A DNA stretch of 64,000 nt from Shigella phage ChubbyThor, in the sequence record OL615013; one strand, written 5' to 3'. The position numbers and the translations under genes are program-made. Within the stretch, counting starts at the first letter, position 1. Each line of letters starts with the position of its first letter. Below the pieces are notes generated by a model, which saw only the letters and a list, made by a program, of their open reading frames with translations, made no database searches and was not told the DNA's origin. Positions 29,133-50,705 of this stretch are shown here, piece by piece.

Positions 29133-29801
29133 TTACTCAATCTGTGCGCCGACGAAGTAATTGATCGTCGCATCGGAGGACTGGAAGTTCACCATCTGCA
29201 GTTCGGCACAGGCGCGCAGAGTGTAGTTGCCTTCGATCATCTTCAGGTTGGCAACGTCCAGCGGCATTACGAAGTCCGGCAACGCGGTTTCACCCAGCTC
29301 AACAGTGTAGTTGTTGGAGTTATCCAGGGTAGTGGTGGTCGCAACCAGACGAGTTTTGCCGCCCTGAGCAACCAGACGCACTGTCTTGTGACCGAGGGTA
29401 GAACAGGCGCGGGTCAGTTCTTTCATCTTCTCTGGAGTGATGATCGCTTCAAAGTCGACAGACGGCAGTTCAATGGTGTCAGCCGGAACGACAGTGAGTT
29501 CTTTAGCAGAACGCCAGAATTGCAGCTGAGAGCTTTCGCCTTTCAACAGGATGTAGTCCTGATGGAATTCGGCTTTACCGCCTTTGAAGGAAGGCAGGCG
29601 CTGGATGGCCAGAAGTTTGGTCAGGTCCAGGATAGGGAACTCAAACGGGAAGTCTTCTTCGATCTGTGCCACGGCGATAACAGTAGACGAATCGTTGATG
29701 CTGCGCAGCATCTTACCCGGTGTCAGAACGATAGATGGGTTGATGGTCTCAAAGTTGGCCAGCAACTGGAGTGTACGTTCGGAGAGAGTGATCTCTTGCA
29801 T
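29133..29801 (-). CDS. 45: sliding clamp, DNA polymerase processivity factor (T4 gp45-like)
   Basis: Size and position upstream of gp44/gp62 as in T4; recalled gp45-like sequence. Confidence 0.75.
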   Translation of the reverse strand: MQEITLSERTLQLLANFETINPSIVLTPGKMLRSINDSSTVIAVAQIEEDFPFEFPILDLTKLLAIQRLPSFKGGKAEFHQDYILLKGESSQLQFWRSAKELTVVPADTIELPSVDFEAIITPEKMKELTRACSTLGHKTVRLVAQGGKTRLVATTTTLDNSNNYTVELGETALPDFVMPLDVANLKMIEGNYTLRACAELQMVNFQSSDATINYFVGAQIE

Positions 29802-29991
29802 TTATGTATCCTCAAAATATAGTGGGGTTCAAGTCATGTTTGACGCAATCTAGTATCGCTGTGTTGTGCTTATAGAACAAGTGGCAAATTGCGCTACGCG
29901 TTATTAATAAATGCCTTCGGCATTTATGGACTTTATTAAAGATAATAACCTTTATTAATCCTATTCGCTTCGCTCATAAAACAAATACTCG

Positions 29992-43395: not shown

Positions 43396-43432
43396 GTTCA
43401 TATCCTCTAAATGTTTTCTATACTTAGTCGAA

Positions 43433-45190: not shown

Positions 45191-45724
45191 TTACAGAGAC
45201 TTATCAGAAATGGCCTGGAAGTAACGCAGATCGACAGTGAACTGAGTATATGAGTCCATTGCAGACATATCCAGTTCCAGCTGGCCGAGGTTCTGAGGCC
45301 AACCCCCCTGCAGAGTCCAGGTCTTAGTGACGTTGTCGTTCGCATCCAGTAACTCCATGATCACGTCACGGAAATAGTCATCTGGATTCGCCGCCGCACG
45401 GTTGCTGTTGCTTCCGTTAATGTACTGCTGCCAAACTTCAAAGGCGTTGTAAGCAGAGTTGTTCACGACGTTGATGAACGTAATAGGAAGCGCTTCGAAG
45501 CGGCGATCACCAGGGAATGGAAGTTCACGACCACCCCAAGGCACAAGGATCTCACCCAGCTGGCCAGTAGGAGTGTTGGTTGTTACTGCCAACAGAGACA
45601 CGTCGCGAATGGTATCCGCGCCAGCTACGAATGCTGGGAAGTTGACGGTCACACGCCAGCGGTGCTGACGTTGTACGCCGCCCCCACGTGACATGGCCGC
45701 GCGAAATTCATTAACTGTAGCCAT
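45191..45724 (-). CDS. 19: tail tube protein (T4 gp19-like)
   Basis: 177 aa, position between sheath and portal as in T4. Confidence 0.7.
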   Translation of the reverse strand: MATVNEFRAAMSRGGGVQRQHRWRVTVNFPAFVAGADTIRDVSLLAVTTNTPTGQLGEILVPWGGRELPFPGDRRFEALPITFINVVNNSAYNAFEVWQQYINGSNSNRAAANPDDYFRDVIMELLDANDNVTKTWTLQGGWPQNLGQLELDMSAMDSYTQFTVDLRYFQAISDKSL

Positions 45725-45744: not shown

Positions 45745-46452
45745 TTACACAATTCTAATTAGCTGCCAACCCGTCGTGTTCAAACGCTCTGCGGTCGCAG
45801 TTTTCCTATGATACACAGACGGCGGTGGAACTGGAATACCCTTGTCGATGTAATCATACAATGCTGAATATTTAAGTCCCAACCTCTCCACGTATTCACG
45901 ACAATTCCCGTGGATTTCGTGTTCTTCGCCGGATGGAGATACCAATTTGAATCGCTTGGCGTTTCCGTTTTGTTCTCCAACGCGTTTCCCCTTCCAGTAG
46001 CCCGACATACACTTCTTGTATTCGTCTGGCCTGGGCTTTCCTTTCAGACAATGTATGATATCTCCAGATTCCCATCTGGGGTCATCTAACTCTACCGCGC
46101 CCAACCTTTGACCAGAAATCGAATCAATCGCTCCGGCCTTTCCTCTTGTTGTCTGCCCGTCACCGCCCCAAGTCTTGTTGTACCCCCGCTGGGTGGACAT
46201 GTGGGTTCCGTGTTGCTTTATAAGAATGATTTCCAATTCTTTTAGATCTTCCACGGAATAGGTCTGGGCTAACACTTGAACAGAAAAGGACTCTTCTCCG
46301 TACTTTCTTATTGCTTGGTGAATAAAGTAATCAGATCCCTTCTGAGCACTATTGCAGTGCTCCCACCACCTTTGCATAGGGTCTCTCGTCGTTATCCCGA
46401 TATAGGCTTTCTGATTGACGAGATTTGTAATTTTGTAAACACTTCCGATCAT
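45745..46452 (-). CDS. GIY-YIG homing endonuclease inserted between tail sheath and tail tube genes
   Basis: N-terminal SVYKITNLVNQKAYIGITT with downstream RWWEH; C-terminal basic region. Confidence 0.8.
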   Translation of the reverse strand: MIGSVYKITNLVNQKAYIGITTRDPMQRWWEHCNSAQKGSDYFIHQAIRKYGEESFSVQVLAQTYSVEDLKELEIILIKQHGTHMSTQRGYNKTWGGDGQTTRGKAGAIDSISGQRLGAVELDDPRWESGDIIHCLKGKPRPDEYKKCMSGYWKGKRVGEQNGNAKRFKLVSPSGEEHEIHGNCREYVERLGLKYSALYDYIDKGIPVPPPSVYHRKTATAERLNTTGWQLIRIV

Positions 46453-46506
46453 TTCGATGTTCTCTCAGTAAAATCGTTCTATTGTGACCCGCAAGAGACC
46501 ATTGAA

Positions 46507-46526
46507 ATGCCCTCCGAAGAGGGCAT
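46507..46526 (-). terminator. hairpin downstream of tail sheath gene
   Basis: ATGCCCTC / GAGGGCAT 8-bp stem with CGAA tetraloop. Confidence 0.5.
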
Positions 46527-46537
46527 GAGGGGTAAAA

Positions 46538-48433
46538 TCAAGAAGCGGCTACGATGCCACCACCGCTTTCGACTTCGCTGAATTCCATGTCTGGTCGAAC
46601 GGCGGCGAAATCAAGATAAATCCAATTTATACTGTATTCTGGTTTCAGCCAGATACCCGCAACCATCTGGTTCGCAGCGATGATGTCGGCGGTGTTGTTG
46701 TCGGCGTCGCACTTCACCTGACCATCGTAGATCGCACCCATGTTGGCCAGCTGGCGGATATACGGGCGTACAGCGTTGCTGAACAGGCTACGAGTGAATT
46801 CATCGTTGTTCTCACCAAGGTAGTATTTGGCGATTGCTGCGATGTTCTGCTCGGCCATGATGAACAGGCCACGAACGTTGATGCGGTCAAACGCAGACGG
46901 GCGAGTCAGACCAGTCTTGTCGCCGTACAGCACGATGCCTTCGTTGGAGAAGGTGACGATGCTGTTGATCTGGTTGCGATACAGCACAGCACGCTCATCA
47001 GAAGACGCAGACCACGCCATGCGGTTATAGTTGTTGTATTTGCCACGGTTGTGGAACGCAGGGGATTTGTAGATGCCCGCGATCTCAATGCTACGTGCCC
47101 AAACACCCGCCGTACCACCACAAGCAGGGATCCAGCGCATCTTGTCGTTGTACTTGTCGTACACATACGCCCAGTTGTCGTCCATGAAGAAGTAGGAAGA
47201 GTCACGTACCAGACTTTCACGCCAGGCCACAACATCTTCCATCTCACGACCACGGTTGCCGACCACAACGTCACGCAGAGGAGACACGAAGGACACAGTG
47301 TCTTTGCGCTCGGTGGAGAGATCAATCAGCGTCTGTTGCTCAATGAGTTCTTCACAGAATGCAAACACAGGCTTGGCGTCATACGCTTCGGCATTGTTCA
47401 GGGCTTCAATGGCCGCCACACGGTTGCCAGTGTAATCGTCTACACCACCTTCGAGTTCAGTGACGCCAGCAGCCAGGGTAGTGGCGAAGGTGTACACCCA
47501 ATTTGAGGTGTCGTTGATCACGTCTTTGAAGTACGCATTGGAGCCATCGGATTTCTTAGAACCCTGAGTGGCCTGCATCAGTTCATATTTTTCGATAATA
47601 GAACCGGAAGCACCAACAGTGGTGGTCACTGCAGTCGCAGTCAGACCGTTCGCATCAGGCACGATAGCAGTCACAGCCTGAGGACCGATTGCTTTGTGAG
47701 TGACGGTGACGGTGTTGGACTTCACGACAACAGAAGAATACACGTCAGTCAGAGCCGTCAACGCAGTGCCGATTTTGGTCGCCAGGGTGGCCGGGGTGTC
47801 AGTGTCAGTGTACGCCACGTCTTCGCCAGCAACAGAGATTGAGCCTGCACCAGTAGTCGTACCGGATACAGAGATACGATCAACCTGACCAACAGCGCCA
47901 GAAGAATCTGTGATGCGACCGACTTTGTCAACGATGACGATGTGGTATTCGCCAGCCTGTGGAGCATAGGCGAAGTTGTTACGGAATTCCCAAGTCGGGA
48001 ATCCAGCAGCATCACACACGTTGATCGCAACGTCGTTACCCAGGGAGCCAGCATAGCGGCCTGTCCAGGTAATAGACGCAGATGGGGACGCGGTTTCGAA
48101 GTCCAGTTTGTTACGGATAAGGATTGCAGTCTGACCTTTGGTTACAGCGTTACGTGCCGCCGGACCGACCACACGGGTCACCCATGCAACAGAGCTGTAA
48201 GACAGGAAGTCAGCAATCACCAGGAAGTCGGTGGCAGTTGCATCGTTTGGCTTGAAGAATTTCTTCACCAGACCAGTTTCACCACCAGTGACCAACACAG
48301 GGAGTTCTGCTTCACCCCATTGGAATTTACCGACGGTCGCACCCTGAACAACAACGGATGGAGACGTCTGAAGCGTGGCATCACGCTCAGTCCACTGTAC
48401 GGACGGCGCAACGCTGAAGCTTTGAGTTGCCAT
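46538..48433 (-). CDS. 18: tail sheath protein (T4 gp18-like)
   Basis: N-terminal GKFQWGEAE matches T4 gp18 GKFQWGPA; start moved to ATG at 48431-48433 (MATQSFS...). Confidence 0.85.
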   Translation of the reverse strand: MATQSFSVAPSVQWTERDATLQTSPSVVVQGATVGKFQWGEAELPVLVTGGETGLVKKFFKPNDATATDFLVIADFLSYSSVAWVTRVVGPAARNAVTKGQTAILIRNKLDFETASPSASITWTGRYAGSLGNDVAINVCDAAGFPTWEFRNNFAYAPQAGEYHIVIVDKVGRITDSSGAVGQVDRISVSGTTTGAGSISVAGEDVAYTDTDTPATLATKIGTALTALTDVYSSVVVKSNTVTVTHKAIGPQAVTAIVPDANGLTATAVTTTVGASGSIIEKYELMQATQGSKKSDGSNAYFKDVINDTSNWVYTFATTLAAGVTELEGGVDDYTGNRVAAIEALNNAEAYDAKPVFAFCEELIEQQTLIDLSTERKDTVSFVSPLRDVVVGNRGREMEDVVAWRESLVRDSSYFFMDDNWAYVYDKYNDKMRWIPACGGTAGVWARSIEIAGIYKSPAFHNRGKYNNYNRMAWSASSDERAVLYRNQINSIVTFSNEGIVLYGDKTGLTRPSAFDRINVRGLFIMAEQNIAAIAKYYLGENNDEFTRSLFSNAVRPYIRQLANMGAIYDGQVKCDADNNTADIIAANQMVAGIWLKPEYSINWIYLDFAAVRPDMEFSEVESGGGIVAAS

Positions 48434-48475: not shown

Positions 48476-48482
48476 TATTTAG
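48476..48482 (-). promoter_or_regulatory. CTAAATA late-promoter-like motif upstream of gp18
   Basis: minus-sense CACTAAATAACTTTCAAATTGAG about 43 nt upstream of ATG 48433. Confidence 0.4.
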
Positions 48483-48485
48483 TGA

Positions 48486-50705
48486 TCACCGTCTCAGCCA
48501 TTCTTCCATGGACATGCCAGAGCGTTCGTCATACACCTGAACTCCACCAAACCCTGGGATACTCTCTATAGAGTGAGGATCTGGTGTTGAAAGCACACCC
48601 CCGAAAGGTAACATCTGAGATTCTTCCATCGCAGATAATCTTCCTCTCATGTCCACAGAGATACTTGAGTTTGTGAGATCACTAAACCATTCTTGTTTCA
48701 CCGCCCATGCATAGAGCACGAGAGGCATCACACAGTCATCATGACAACCATCATCGGCTTCATACCTTGTCCCAGTCCATACGAATGTACTGAGTTCATC
48801 TATCGTGTCTTGGTCATCAACCACCAGCATCTCACGTTCGATAAGCGCCTTGAGGTTAGCACAACCATTCGAACGCACTTTCTTGTTCGTGTTGATGCCA
48901 GGCTCAGGGCGGCGGCCACCAATTCGTTTGCCAGTACCCTTCGCATCTGTGGTAGTGAAGATGATCTCCGGGTATTCAATTTCCTGATATAGAATTGTGA
49001 TCACCTGGCCACCCACGTCGTTGTTGGTTTCAACCAACATCGGACACGTGCCATACTTCTCGCCCATGTCGGCGATAGTGTATGCATACATCATTGGAGG
49101 TATCGTGTTGTTCCGATACTTGGCTGCAATCTTGTGAGGATAGTCTGTGATATCCAAGATGGTCAGAACAGAGTAATCCCCCTCCACACCTTTGCCTGTA
49201 TCGGCGATACCCATGTAGATGCGCTTCGGATCGTAATCGTGGTAGATCTTGGTGAACTCGTTCGGCTCCTGATAGAGTTTCGAGGTCATCTTGTCTAGAC
49301 ACTTGGCAGGTATCAGTGATCCTACAGAACCACGGAACTTGATACCGAATTCCTGATCGAAACGTGCATCGCCCAGCTTCGCCCTCTGTTTGGATTCCCA
49401 GTTCGGATCCTTGGTGTATGTTGGAACACGATACCATGGAACCTCTGTGAGTTTGAAGTCGTTGTATTGAGGATGCTCTGGGTTCGCCTTGGTGACGATG
49501 TCGTAGAACAACCCGCGCTGACCTTTCGGCGTACTGGTCAGGATACAACGTGATGTCTCTGCAGATGCAATCGCTGGGAATGTGGACTCCCAGAATTCAA
49601 AGTCATTTTCGATGAACGCCACTTCGTCTACATACAGAAGCGATACAGATCGACCACGGATGGAGTCAGAGGATGTCGCATAAGCATAGATCTTCGACCC
49701 GTTTTCGAATTCAATCAACGTGGAGCCGAACTTCTCACAACCCTGTTGGAGGAAGAATGGCAAATCCTGGTATGCCTTGCGGATACGGTCTAGGATTTCA
49801 ATCGCCTGCTTCTCTTTGTTCGCCAGTACCGCGATCTCTTTGTCAGAGTGGAACATCGCATACCAGAGCAGGAACGCTGCTACGACTGTCGTGTTGTGGC
49901 TGAGGAAGCCGTTGGTGTAGTAGCGCTGATCACTAGATTTCACCTGCAGGTCAAACATGTGATGCATCTCACCAGTCTGCCATACCTCAACGACTTCTTC
50001 TAGACCTTCTTCGGTCATTAGCCGTGAACCAGCAACCAGATCTTTAGCAAACACTTCCTTCATGTTCTGATTGAAGAACATGTGATCATCGGCCACGTTG
50101 ATACGACGACCACTGGAAGTGATGACAACGTACTCTTGGTACAGCTTAGTCTTGTGCGCGGCGATGACAGGCACCCAGCCTTTGTCACAGCGAACAAAAT
50201 AACGCTTGCCGAAGCGGCTGTCTACGAACTTATCGTGTTTGCCAAAGGCATTCAGTGGCTCGGCGTGATTTGGTCCCTCGAAGCGGCTGTGAAGCTCCTC
50301 GATGGTGACTTTAAACTCTTCTTGGCTGAACGTATCGTAAACCTCGACGATGCTGTCACCCTTCACACACTTACCAGACTGACGCGCCTGAACCACGGCG
50401 TTGAAGCGGTGATCCTGGAAGTCATGGAACAGCTGCTTCTGATAATCATGCATATCGAAGAGGATGAAGCCCTTATCGATGGTCGTGATCTTGTAGTAGT
50501 TGGCGGCGAAGTAATGAGCGTCCATCGCGCACTCAACGAACTCCGATTCTTGATCGTCGGTCAACATCAACTCTACACGAGGAGCACGCACAGACGGCTT
50601 GCGCATGAACGTCTGGTCCATACGCAATCTGACATCATCAATCTTGAATCCCGTCTTTATCGGGGCATATTCAATATCACGCTTCTGATACGCCATCGTC
50701 TTCAC
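48486..50705 (-). CDS. 17: terminase large subunit (T4 gp17-like) interrupted by a mini-intein
   Basis: ARQSGK then 159-aa insert then TTVVAAFLLWY, versus T4 Walker A SRQLGKTTVVAIFLAHF; C-terminal nuclease region present. Confidence 0.85.
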   Translation of the reverse strand: MKTMAYQKRDIEYAPIKTGFKIDDVRLRMDQTFMRKPSVRAPRVELMLTDDQESEFVECAMDAHYFAANYYKITTIDKGFILFDMHDYQKQLFHDFQDHRFNAVVQARQSGKCVKGDSIVEVYDTFSQEEFKVTIEELHSRFEGPNHAEPLNAFGKHDKFVDSRFGKRYFVRCDKGWVPVIAAHKTKLYQEYVVITSSGRRINVADDHMFFNQNMKEVFAKDLVAGSRLMTEEGLEEVVEVWQTGEMHHMFDLQVKSSDQRYYTNGFLSHNTTVVAAFLLWYAMFHSDKEIAVLANKEKQAIEILDRIRKAYQDLPFFLQQGCEKFGSTLIEFENGSKIYAYATSSDSIRGRSVSLLYVDEVAFIENDFEFWESTFPAIASAETSRCILTSTPKGQRGLFYDIVTKANPEHPQYNDFKLTEVPWYRVPTYTKDPNWESKQRAKLGDARFDQEFGIKFRGSVGSLIPAKCLDKMTSKLYQEPNEFTKIYHDYDPKRIYMGIADTGKGVEGDYSVLTILDITDYPHKIAAKYRNNTIPPMMYAYTIADMGEKYGTCPMLVETNNDVGGQVITILYQEIEYPEIIFTTTDAKGTGKRIGGRRPEPGINTNKKVRSNGCANLKALIEREMLVVDDQDTIDELSTFVWTGTRYEADDGCHDDCVMPLVLYAWAVKQEWFSDLTNSSISVDMRGRLSAMEESQMLPFGGVLSTPDPHSIESIPGFGGVQVYDERSGMSMEEWLRR
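49893..50369 (-). mobile_element. mini-intein (about 159 aa, no homing-endonuclease domain) in the terminase Walker A P-loop
   Basis: Insert starts with Cys (codon 50367-50369) right after ARQSGK, ends MFDLQVKSSDQRYYTNGFLSHN (block F/G-like, terminal His-Asn, codons ending 49893), followed by Thr +1. Confidence 0.75.

Follow-up and report, generated by a model that had tools for sequence, protein, structure and literature searches.

In Shigella phage ChubbyThor (sequence record OL615013), a gene of the GIY-YIG endonuclease type stands between the tail sheath gene gp18 and the tail tube gene gp19. Is this gene a selfish, mobile insertion, a long-standing resident with another function, or a remnant on its way to loss, and how is the tail tube gene expressed with such an insert directly upstream of it? 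We examined these questions in a window of 64,000 nucleotides (nt), the term used here for the whole stretch of phage DNA that was analyzed. With a probability of roughly 0.8, we favor the reading that the gene, inserted between gp18 and gp19 in an Agtrevirus, encodes a selfish, free-standing, I-TevI-like GIY-YIG homing endonuclease. This reading is carried by the presence or absence of the gene among phages with nearly identical flanking DNA, by synonymous divergence that departs in both directions from that of the neighboring genes, and by the mosaic composition of the gene itself. Its last codons are likely to contain the late promoter of gp19.

A complete GIY-YIG endonuclease gene

The sequence-only reading of this DNA had proposed that a complete GIY-YIG endonuclease gene lies between gp18 and gp19. 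Completeness and position are both borne out, the latter with exact coordinates, and the strand, which had not been given, is the minus strand. The open reading frame (ORF) starts at the first ATG past an in-frame stop and encodes 235 amino acids (aa) followed by a stop codon, with a protein that begins MIGSVYKITNLVNQKAYIGITTRDPMQRWWEH. The gene and its parts are as follows.

45745..46452, minus strand: free-standing GIY-YIG homing endonuclease gene (ORF, PF01541, phrog_314, UGO47134.1)
46162..46452, minus strand: N-terminal GIY-YIG catalytic domain (about aa 1-97)
45969..46193, minus strand: variable middle (linker) cassette (about aa 87-161), similar to that of phage pertopsoe, delimited by alignment, sliding identity, and a lower predicted local distance difference test score (pLDDT, 66-86)
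45748..45968, minus strand: C-terminal putative DNA-binding region (about aa 162-235)

The protein matches the Pfam family GIY-YIG (PF01541) at residues 3-83 (E = 6.8e-9; 36.4 bits versus a cut-off of 22.6) and the 'homing endonuclease' family PHROG 314 (phrog_314; E = 4e-42), and both matches are far beyond chance. GenBank holds the exact protein as UGO47134.1, labeled 'putative GIY-YIG endonuclease [Shigella phage ChubbyThor]', and thus the gene has already been annotated, while a search of the literature did not find a paper that discusses it. The threshold of SegE_GIY-YIG (Pfam PF19835) was missed (17.5 bits; cut-off 25), and no paralogue was found elsewhere within the window.

In an alignment of 23 family members, no variation is seen at residues Y6, Y17-I18-G19, R28, E74, and N92, and almost none at H32 and H45. 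The catalytic reference residues of I-TevI are Y6, Y17, G19, R27, E75, and N90, and HMMER pairs the catalytic residues of the ChubbyThor protein with Y6, Y17, R27, and E75 of that enzyme. The predicted structure includes the I-TevI-type catalytic fold, a three-stranded antiparallel sheet with helices at its sides. Beyond residue 97 this is followed by a middle region modeled with lower confidence and then by a C-terminal region (pLDDT 84-92) in which two short β-strands and two helices precede a last strand at residues 230-234, the site of a conserved GWxLxR sequence. The C-terminal 142 residues yielded nothing meaningful in Pfam (E <= 10) or in a search of Protein Data Bank (PDB) sequences, and Pfam detected neither a zinc finger nor a NUMOD motif in the protein. 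A weak resemblance does exist between the C-terminal region and the DNA-binding part of I-HmuI. As modeled, an I-TevI-like layout of nuclease, linker, and DNA-binding module is likely, if not proven. Comparison with four orthologues gave ratios of nonsynonymous to synonymous divergence (dN/dS) of 0.06-0.20, the lowest value being that against the closest relative, which indicates that the protein is under purifying selection.

Evidence for mobility

The flanks of the gene are 98-99% identical to the corresponding DNA of the Agtrevirus phages P46FS4, Gloob, and Ag3 (Ackermannviridae), and with P46FS4 the identity reaches 99-100% across 4 kb of flanks. The endonuclease gene is absent from these three phages and from MK-13, in all four of which the flanks are about 96-99% identical and the gp18-gp19 spacer measures 78 nt. 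This comparison of junctions agrees with the proposal in the sequence-only reading that the gene is an insertion, and the alternative of a conserved core gene was rejected because viable isolates lack it.

Where the gene is present, its divergence does not follow that of its neighbors. Relative to SKML-39, a member of the same genus, synonymous divergence (dS) is 0.76 for the endonuclease compared with 0.10 for gp18 and 0.07 for gp19, which is about 8-fold higher; relative to pertopsoe, a Kuttervirus of a different subfamily, the endonuclease value of 0.48 is about 2.5-fold lower than those of gp18 (1.10) and gp19 (1.27). The corresponding aa identities for gp18, endonuclease, and gp19 are 98.6, 80.5, and 100% for SKML-39 and 91.6, 94.5, and 93.2% for pertopsoe. 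The gene is moreover mosaic: its first ~260 and last ~240 nt are like those of RPN242, and the middle (45969-46193) is like that of pertopsoe, with the middle cassettes of RPN242 and of SKML-39/XF4 being two others that cannot be aligned.

A short stretch of altered sequence adjoins the insert on its gp18 side.

46541..46583, minus strand: divergent tract within the last 46 nt of gp18, with 7 substitutions relative to P46FS4 (binomial P = 2.3e-7 for a background of 0.7%)

In contrast, the flank on the gp19 side is identical to that of P46FS4. Judged from its sequence, the gp18 tract would look like a short co-conversion tract. Neither a donor allele more than 95% identical over its full length nor an identical gp18 tail was found in the phage collection, and the event could have been either a gain of the gene here or its loss in the Ag3 group.

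Two further patches were observed near the junction. Within gp19, positions 45602-45650 contain five clustered differences from both P46FS4 and SKML-39, and the window there equals Ag3; this second mosaic patch is small and has no connection with the endonuclease insert. Within gp18, Ag3 is 75% identical to the window and to P46FS4 over 60 nt (46584-46643) and 98-100% identical on either side, which is a further short recombination patch.

Occupants of the junction in relatives

Three types of GIY-YIG gene occur at the gp18-gp19 junction of related phages, singly, in tandem, or as remnants. The long type, to which the ChubbyThor gene belongs, is represented by 45 phage records at aa identities of at least 60%, and the short type (152 aa) by ~198 records at identities of at least 80%. 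The remaining type, a gene of 264 aa on the opposite strand, is found in SW16-7 and SP-9-14; Det7, PhaxI, and others carry a version 64% identical, which lies beside a gene of the short type. Inserts located in relatives include the following, given by position in the respective locus sequences.

L004:923-1717: junction insert of SW16-7
L005:954-1412: junction insert of Se-G
L009:2474-3651: junction insert of ECML-4

In ECML-4 the long gene stands in tandem with a 106-aa remnant that has no Pfam match, and the 90%-identity cluster of UGO47134.1 includes members of 151 and 209 aa. In Vibrio phage K469, gp18 and gp19 are separated by a gap of 16 nt, which contains no gene and neither of the two expression signals, a hairpin and a promoter-like motif, described below. 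These alleles make the gp18-gp19 spacer a hotspot of homing endonuclease turnover.

One database record deserves comment. The 111-kb sequence OR844942.1, named 'Enterococcus phage Efm 3-10', encodes at 29536-29991 a protein 100% identical to the short GIY-YIG protein of Kuttervirus Se-G, and the record is also among the DNA matches to the sheath-tube region. Either its host is mislabeled or the record is contaminated, probably.

Layout of the junction and the gp19 promoter-like motif

On the minus strand the genes follow the order terminase gp17, sheath gp18, endonuclease, tube gp19, and portal gp20. The endonuclease gene is intergenic, between the gp18 stop at 46538 and the gp19 start at 45724, and is part of neither an intron nor an intein. 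The elements surrounding it are as follows, with the gp18 ATG chosen after annotated homologues of 1896 nt.

46538..48433, minus strand: gp18 tail sheath gene, upstream neighbor (phrog_23, 2e-112), with its stop codon at 46538-46540
46507..46526, minus strand: GC-rich hairpin 3′ of gp18, AUGCCCUC-UUCG-GAGGGCAU, with a UUCG loop (sequence, RNA fold)
46453..46506, minus strand: endonuclease leader of 54 nt with a GAGAG Shine-Dalgarno-like site (sequence)
45756..45762, minus strand: CTAATTA(G), a late-promoter-like motif of gp19, at endonuclease codons L231-I232-R233
45191..45724, minus strand: gp19 tail tube gene, downstream neighbor (phrog_45, 1.6e-56)

The hairpin behind gp18 is terminator-like with a poor U tract, and is kept in empty and occupied alleles; a pattern scan, in view of the poor T run, reported no terminator at this place, and an analogous hairpin in KWBSE43-6 is annotated as one. 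In the endonuclease leader, a promoter scan detected no sigma-70-like site, and no CTAADTA motif (D = A, G, or T) is present. The leader also contains a stem, UCUCUU/GAGAGA (46460-46500, minus strand), which is conserved in four alleles and could hide the ribosome-binding site of the endonuclease. Control of the ribosome-binding site by this stem was considered and dropped, given a fold z-score of -1.0 and the absence of covariation.

The 3′ end of the endonuclease gene reads TGG CAG CTA ATT AGA ATT GTG TAA, and the gp19 ATG lies 20 nt past the stop codon. The sequence-only reading had pointed to a promoter-like CTAATTA in the last codons of the gene. This motif indeed occupies codons 231-233, lies 31 nt upstream of the gp19 ATG, and is retained in empty alleles and in alleles with other inserts. 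The hairpin and CTAATTAG bracket the insert, and both are present in empty alleles.

Motif counts over the 64-kb window place this element within a larger family. The bare 7-mer CTAATTA is not enriched (four found, 2.9 expected), and the statistic for the 8-mer CTAATTAG alone is not significant. CTAAATA occurs in ten copies, all on the coding strand, compared with 3.35 expected over both strands, and eight of the ten lie ~23-50 nt upstream of start codons, including those of gp18 (48476-48482) and the scaffold gene. For the CTAADTA family as a whole, 8.95 copies were expected and 17 were found, all but one on the coding strand, and none of 100 shuffles reached 17. Copies of the variants CTAAGTA and CTAATTA are found before a small ORF that follows the portal gene (motif at 43421-43427), before the gene starting at ~41235, which is probably that of the major capsid protein, and before gp20, where caCTAATTA is found 24 nt upstream of the ATG. 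Copies of the family are located at the following positions.

437, 32044, 35938, 42218, 48476, 52753, 59265, and 63892, minus strand: CTAAATA
27638, 41282, and 43421, minus strand: CTAAGTA
45149 and 45756, minus strand: CTAATTA

More generally, most structural genes have a copy of CTAA[A/G/T]TA ~23-50 nt upstream, often with CA before it and CC after it.

T4-type late promoters consist of TATAAATA located ~5-10 nt upstream of the late transcript start and are served by a gp55-type sigma factor. This -10-like element is present in a single copy in the window, elsewhere than at the gp18-gp19 locus. The counts and positions above suggest that CTAAATA is late-promoter-like, the local equivalent of the T4 late element, with the gp19 copy being the variant CTAATTA. 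A late motif CTAAATAcCcc has reportedly been described for ViI-like phages, and a literature search for the gp19 motif yielded nothing informative. In the Agtrevirus SW16-7, a late-transcription accessory protein of the T4 type has been annotated (PMC10458263).

The gp19 motif is found at the same place in every enterobacterial Ackermannviridae allele that was read, whatever the insert (ten alleles with different inserts), including the empty ones.

P46FS4 and Ag3: empty allele; motif present
ChubbyThor window, SKML-39, pertopsoe, and ECML-4: long endonuclease allele; CTAATTA
XF4: long endonuclease allele; canonical CTAAATA
Se-G and KWBSE43-6: short 152-aa GIY-YIG allele; ORF stop codon (TAG or TAA) within the motif, in other frames
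Kevin: short 152-aa GIY-YIG allele; canonical CTAAATA
SW16-7: 264-aa opposite-strand GIY-YIG allele; canonical CTAAATA

Because the motif is conserved where it is noncoding, that is, in empty alleles, in other frames, and next to an opposite-strand gene, protein coding cannot explain its conservation. The idea, suggested by gap placement in a MAFFT alignment, that the motif is part of the insert was rejected on inspection by eye, as the empty allele has the motif too. These patterns argue that CTAATTA in the last endonuclease codons is likely the gp19 late promoter, and the conservation of the motif in noncoding contexts supports the earlier suggestion that the insert was shaped around gp19 expression signals.

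Age of the gene and nature of the empty sites

Metagenomic contigs with gp18 and gp19 homologues 46-76% identical to those of the window also carry an endonuclease homologue (47-53% identical) directly 3′ of the sheath gene. In two contigs (L012 and L013) this homologue overlaps or abuts gp19, and in another (L014) ten small opposite-strand ORFs lie between it and gp19 (L014:4727-7584). One ORF in the L014 block has weak or faint Pfam matches to helix-turn-helix families (HTH_23 and HTH_7). By these comparisons, the endonuclease family is old at the gp18-gp19 site within the Ackermannviridae.

The metagenomic homologues preserve the terminal G-W-x-L-x-R/K sequence, a β-strand in the model, even though the DNA motif is absent from them. 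The last codons therefore represent an ancestral part of the protein rather than an accidental read-through. The empty Agtrevirus spacer consists of the hairpin, 15 nt, and then GGCA-CTAATTAGAATTGTGTAA, and empty sites retain 18-22 nt from the 3′ end of the endonuclease ORF, stop codon included. Given that these codons are ancestral, the empty spacer holds an ORF end and is most simply seen as the scar of a deletion that kept the promoter. Empty sites may thus be deletion scars rather than naive targets, and the locus would fit the cycle of invasion, decay, loss, and re-invasion that is usual for such genes.

Proposed mechanism and alternatives

For the homing endonuclease reading, we propose the following series of events. 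In a mixed infection, the C-terminal region of the monomeric enzyme would bind the gp18/gp19 junction of a relative that has no endonuclease gene, and the GIY-YIG domain would make a double-strand break near the bound site. The recombination machinery of the phage would then repair the break from the genome carrying the endonuclease, by which the gene and a short flank would be copied in. As the gene follows the gp18 hairpin and lacks a promoter of its own, it would probably be transcribed only late, at a low level, and by read-through. The gp19 late promoter (CTAATTAG...) would coincide with the last five codons and the stop codon of the endonuclease gene, so that tail tube expression would be kept. 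Cleavage, the target site, homing, promoter use, and read-through expression of the endonuclease are elements that we infer. Several points weigh against the reading. No published cleavage or homing experiment was found for the endonuclease or a close homologue, and the recent event could be a gain in ChubbyThor or a loss in P46FS4/Ag3. Homologues also stand at this junction in phages whose gp18 and gp19 show only 46-51% identity, with the endonuclease similarly diverged (48%), a pattern that fits long vertical residence as well. Finally, the promoter assignment of the gp19 motif draws on enrichment and conservation.

That last pattern leads to the explanation that the gene is domesticated, a long-resident and essentially vertically inherited Ackermannviridae gene, lost in a few lineages, whose function is something other than homing; it might, for example, encode a regulator that binds its own 3′ end, the gp19 promoter, or serve in the exclusion of competing phages. 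We consider this unlikely. The comparable identities of gp18 (46-66%) and the endonuclease (47-53%) among same-junction homologues, the clearly purifying selection, the conserved GWxLxR strand that overlaps the promoter, and the scar-like appearance of the empty sites are all in its favor. However, vertical residence is difficult to reconcile with dS values that depart strongly from those of the flanks, upward as well as downward, with a mosaic gene that is present or absent among phages ~99% identical in their flanks, and with two other GIY-YIG types at the same site in relatives, and the four isolated, viable phages without the gene show it to be dispensable. Regulation and homing can, moreover, coexist: according to Edgell et al. 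(2004), I-TevI reportedly both homes and regulates, the latter at its own promoter. If the gene were instead an inactive, decaying homing endonuclease whose ORF merely looks intact on its way to loss, the degenerate copies in relatives (the 106-aa ECML-4 remnant and the 151- and 209-aa cluster members) and the complete losses in the Ag3 group would be its precedents. Here the ORF has its full length, none of the catalytic residues varies, dN/dS is 0.06 versus the closest relative and at most 0.20 overall, and the structure is predicted with confidence, which makes decay very improbable.

Two further proposals concern the promoter rather than the nuclease. The overlap with CTAATTA might be a coincidence, with gp19 being read only from the gp18 promoter and the motif being kept for encoding L-I-R. 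The lack of enrichment of the bare 7-mer is consistent with this, as are L012 and L013, which keep the protein motif (LSR and LKH, respectively) without the DNA motif and in which gp19 overlaps or abuts the endonuclease gene. Against coincidence stand the constant distance between motif and gp19 in empty, other-frame (TAA/TAG in the motif), and opposite-strand alleles, the canonical CTAAATA at the same place in XF4, Kevin, and SW16-7, the similarly placed caCTAATTA of gp20, and the enrichment and strand specificity of the CTAADTA family, and we regard such an accident as improbable. A more elaborate proposal, which we offer as a speculation with rather small odds, is that the hairpin, the endonuclease gene, and the embedded promoter together form a self-insulating mobile cassette that brought or forced a new gp19 promoter, as might be suggested by Vibrio relatives, in which only 16 nt separate gp18 from gp19 and both signals are missing. 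In that case the empty Agtrevirus sites would be scars (the hairpin plus ~20 nt of ORF end), the locus would be a record of three GIY-YIG lineages that were repeatedly lost, replaced, and brought in again, and the DNA-binding domain of the endonuclease might bind the 3′ end and tune tail tube expression.

Further observations and significance

Elsewhere in the window, the large terminase (TerL) gene (48486-50705) contains a 159-aa mini-intein at 49893-50369 (minus strand), which splits the Walker A motif (ARQSGK/CVKGDS...GFLSHN/TTVVAAF). It scores 26.4 bits against Pfam Intein_splicing, under the cut-off, and an intein-less TerL homologue (contig L014, 580 aa) aligns seamlessly over the gap. 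The TerL gene has the same length in Agtrevirus relatives, and the intein therefore seems to be fixed in the genus.

The ChubbyThor endonuclease gene is real, was interpreted correctly by the sequence-only reading, and is ordinary as well as already annotated. With the exact protein deposited and orthologues labeled as homing endonucleases in dozens of Ackermannviridae genomes, the identification itself adds little beyond bookkeeping. The gp18-gp19 junction, with its empty form, three types, tandems, remnants, and crossable phages, is of wider use as a clean natural system for endonuclease turnover. The overlap of coding sequence and putative late promoter illustrates how a selfish gene can sit harmlessly in a highly expressed structural operon, and the swapping of middle cassettes between alleles may shed light on the evolution of I-TevI-like linkers. 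Endonuclease genes of this kind also explain part of the mosaicism of the Ackermannviridae, a family with uses in biocontrol and therapy.

Comparison with known systems

The archetype of GIY-YIG enzymes is I-TevI, the endonuclease of the T4 td intron, with which the ChubbyThor protein shares the catalytic fold and residues, a similar size (235 aa versus 245 aa), and, in the predicted structure, the order of N-terminal nuclease, extended middle, and C-terminal module. The C-terminal arrangement 'G-x-x-N..., two short beta-strands, then helices' presumably resembles the helix-turn-helix region of I-TevI. The two differ in that I-TevI resides in a group I intron and the ChubbyThor gene is free-standing in an intergenic spacer, and the C-terminal similarity is indirect, through I-HmuI.

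In genomic setting, the gene resembles those of the T4 Seg proteins, SegA-G, which are free-standing GIY-YIG homing endonucleases responsible for marker exclusion between T-even phages. Like them, it is a free-standing GIY-YIG gene amid conserved essential genes, is optional in close relatives, and has a short divergent, co-conversion-like tract beside the insertion. Unlike them, it is found in the Ackermannviridae, at another locus, and is known from sequence alone. Homologues in LIMEstone1 have been annotated as SegB/SegD-like, and many homing endonuclease genes have been reported in relatives of the LIMEstone type (PMC3296691).

The orthologues in pertopsoe (YP_009888953.1), SKML-39 (YP_007236109.1), ECML-4 (YP_009101526.1), XF4 ('F-LimII'), and RPN242 (UHS65593.1), at 74-94.5% aa identity, share the junction, the orientation, and the terminal overlap with CTAA[A/T]TAG. 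The ChubbyThor allele differs from them as a new combination of RPN242-like ends and a pertopsoe-like middle, and the backbone around it is of the P46FS4/Ag3 type, which is otherwise without the gene.

With respect to its expression signals, the junction recalls the mobE gene of phage Aeh1. Edgell, Gibb and Belfort (2010) reportedly describe how mobE and other T4-like free-standing endonuclease genes interleave their expression signals with those of host genes. The two arrangements have in common that transcription of a neighboring essential gene is preserved and that hairpins or terminators limit expression of the endonuclease. They differ in that the downstream promoter-like motif of ChubbyThor lies inside the last codons of the endonuclease gene itself.
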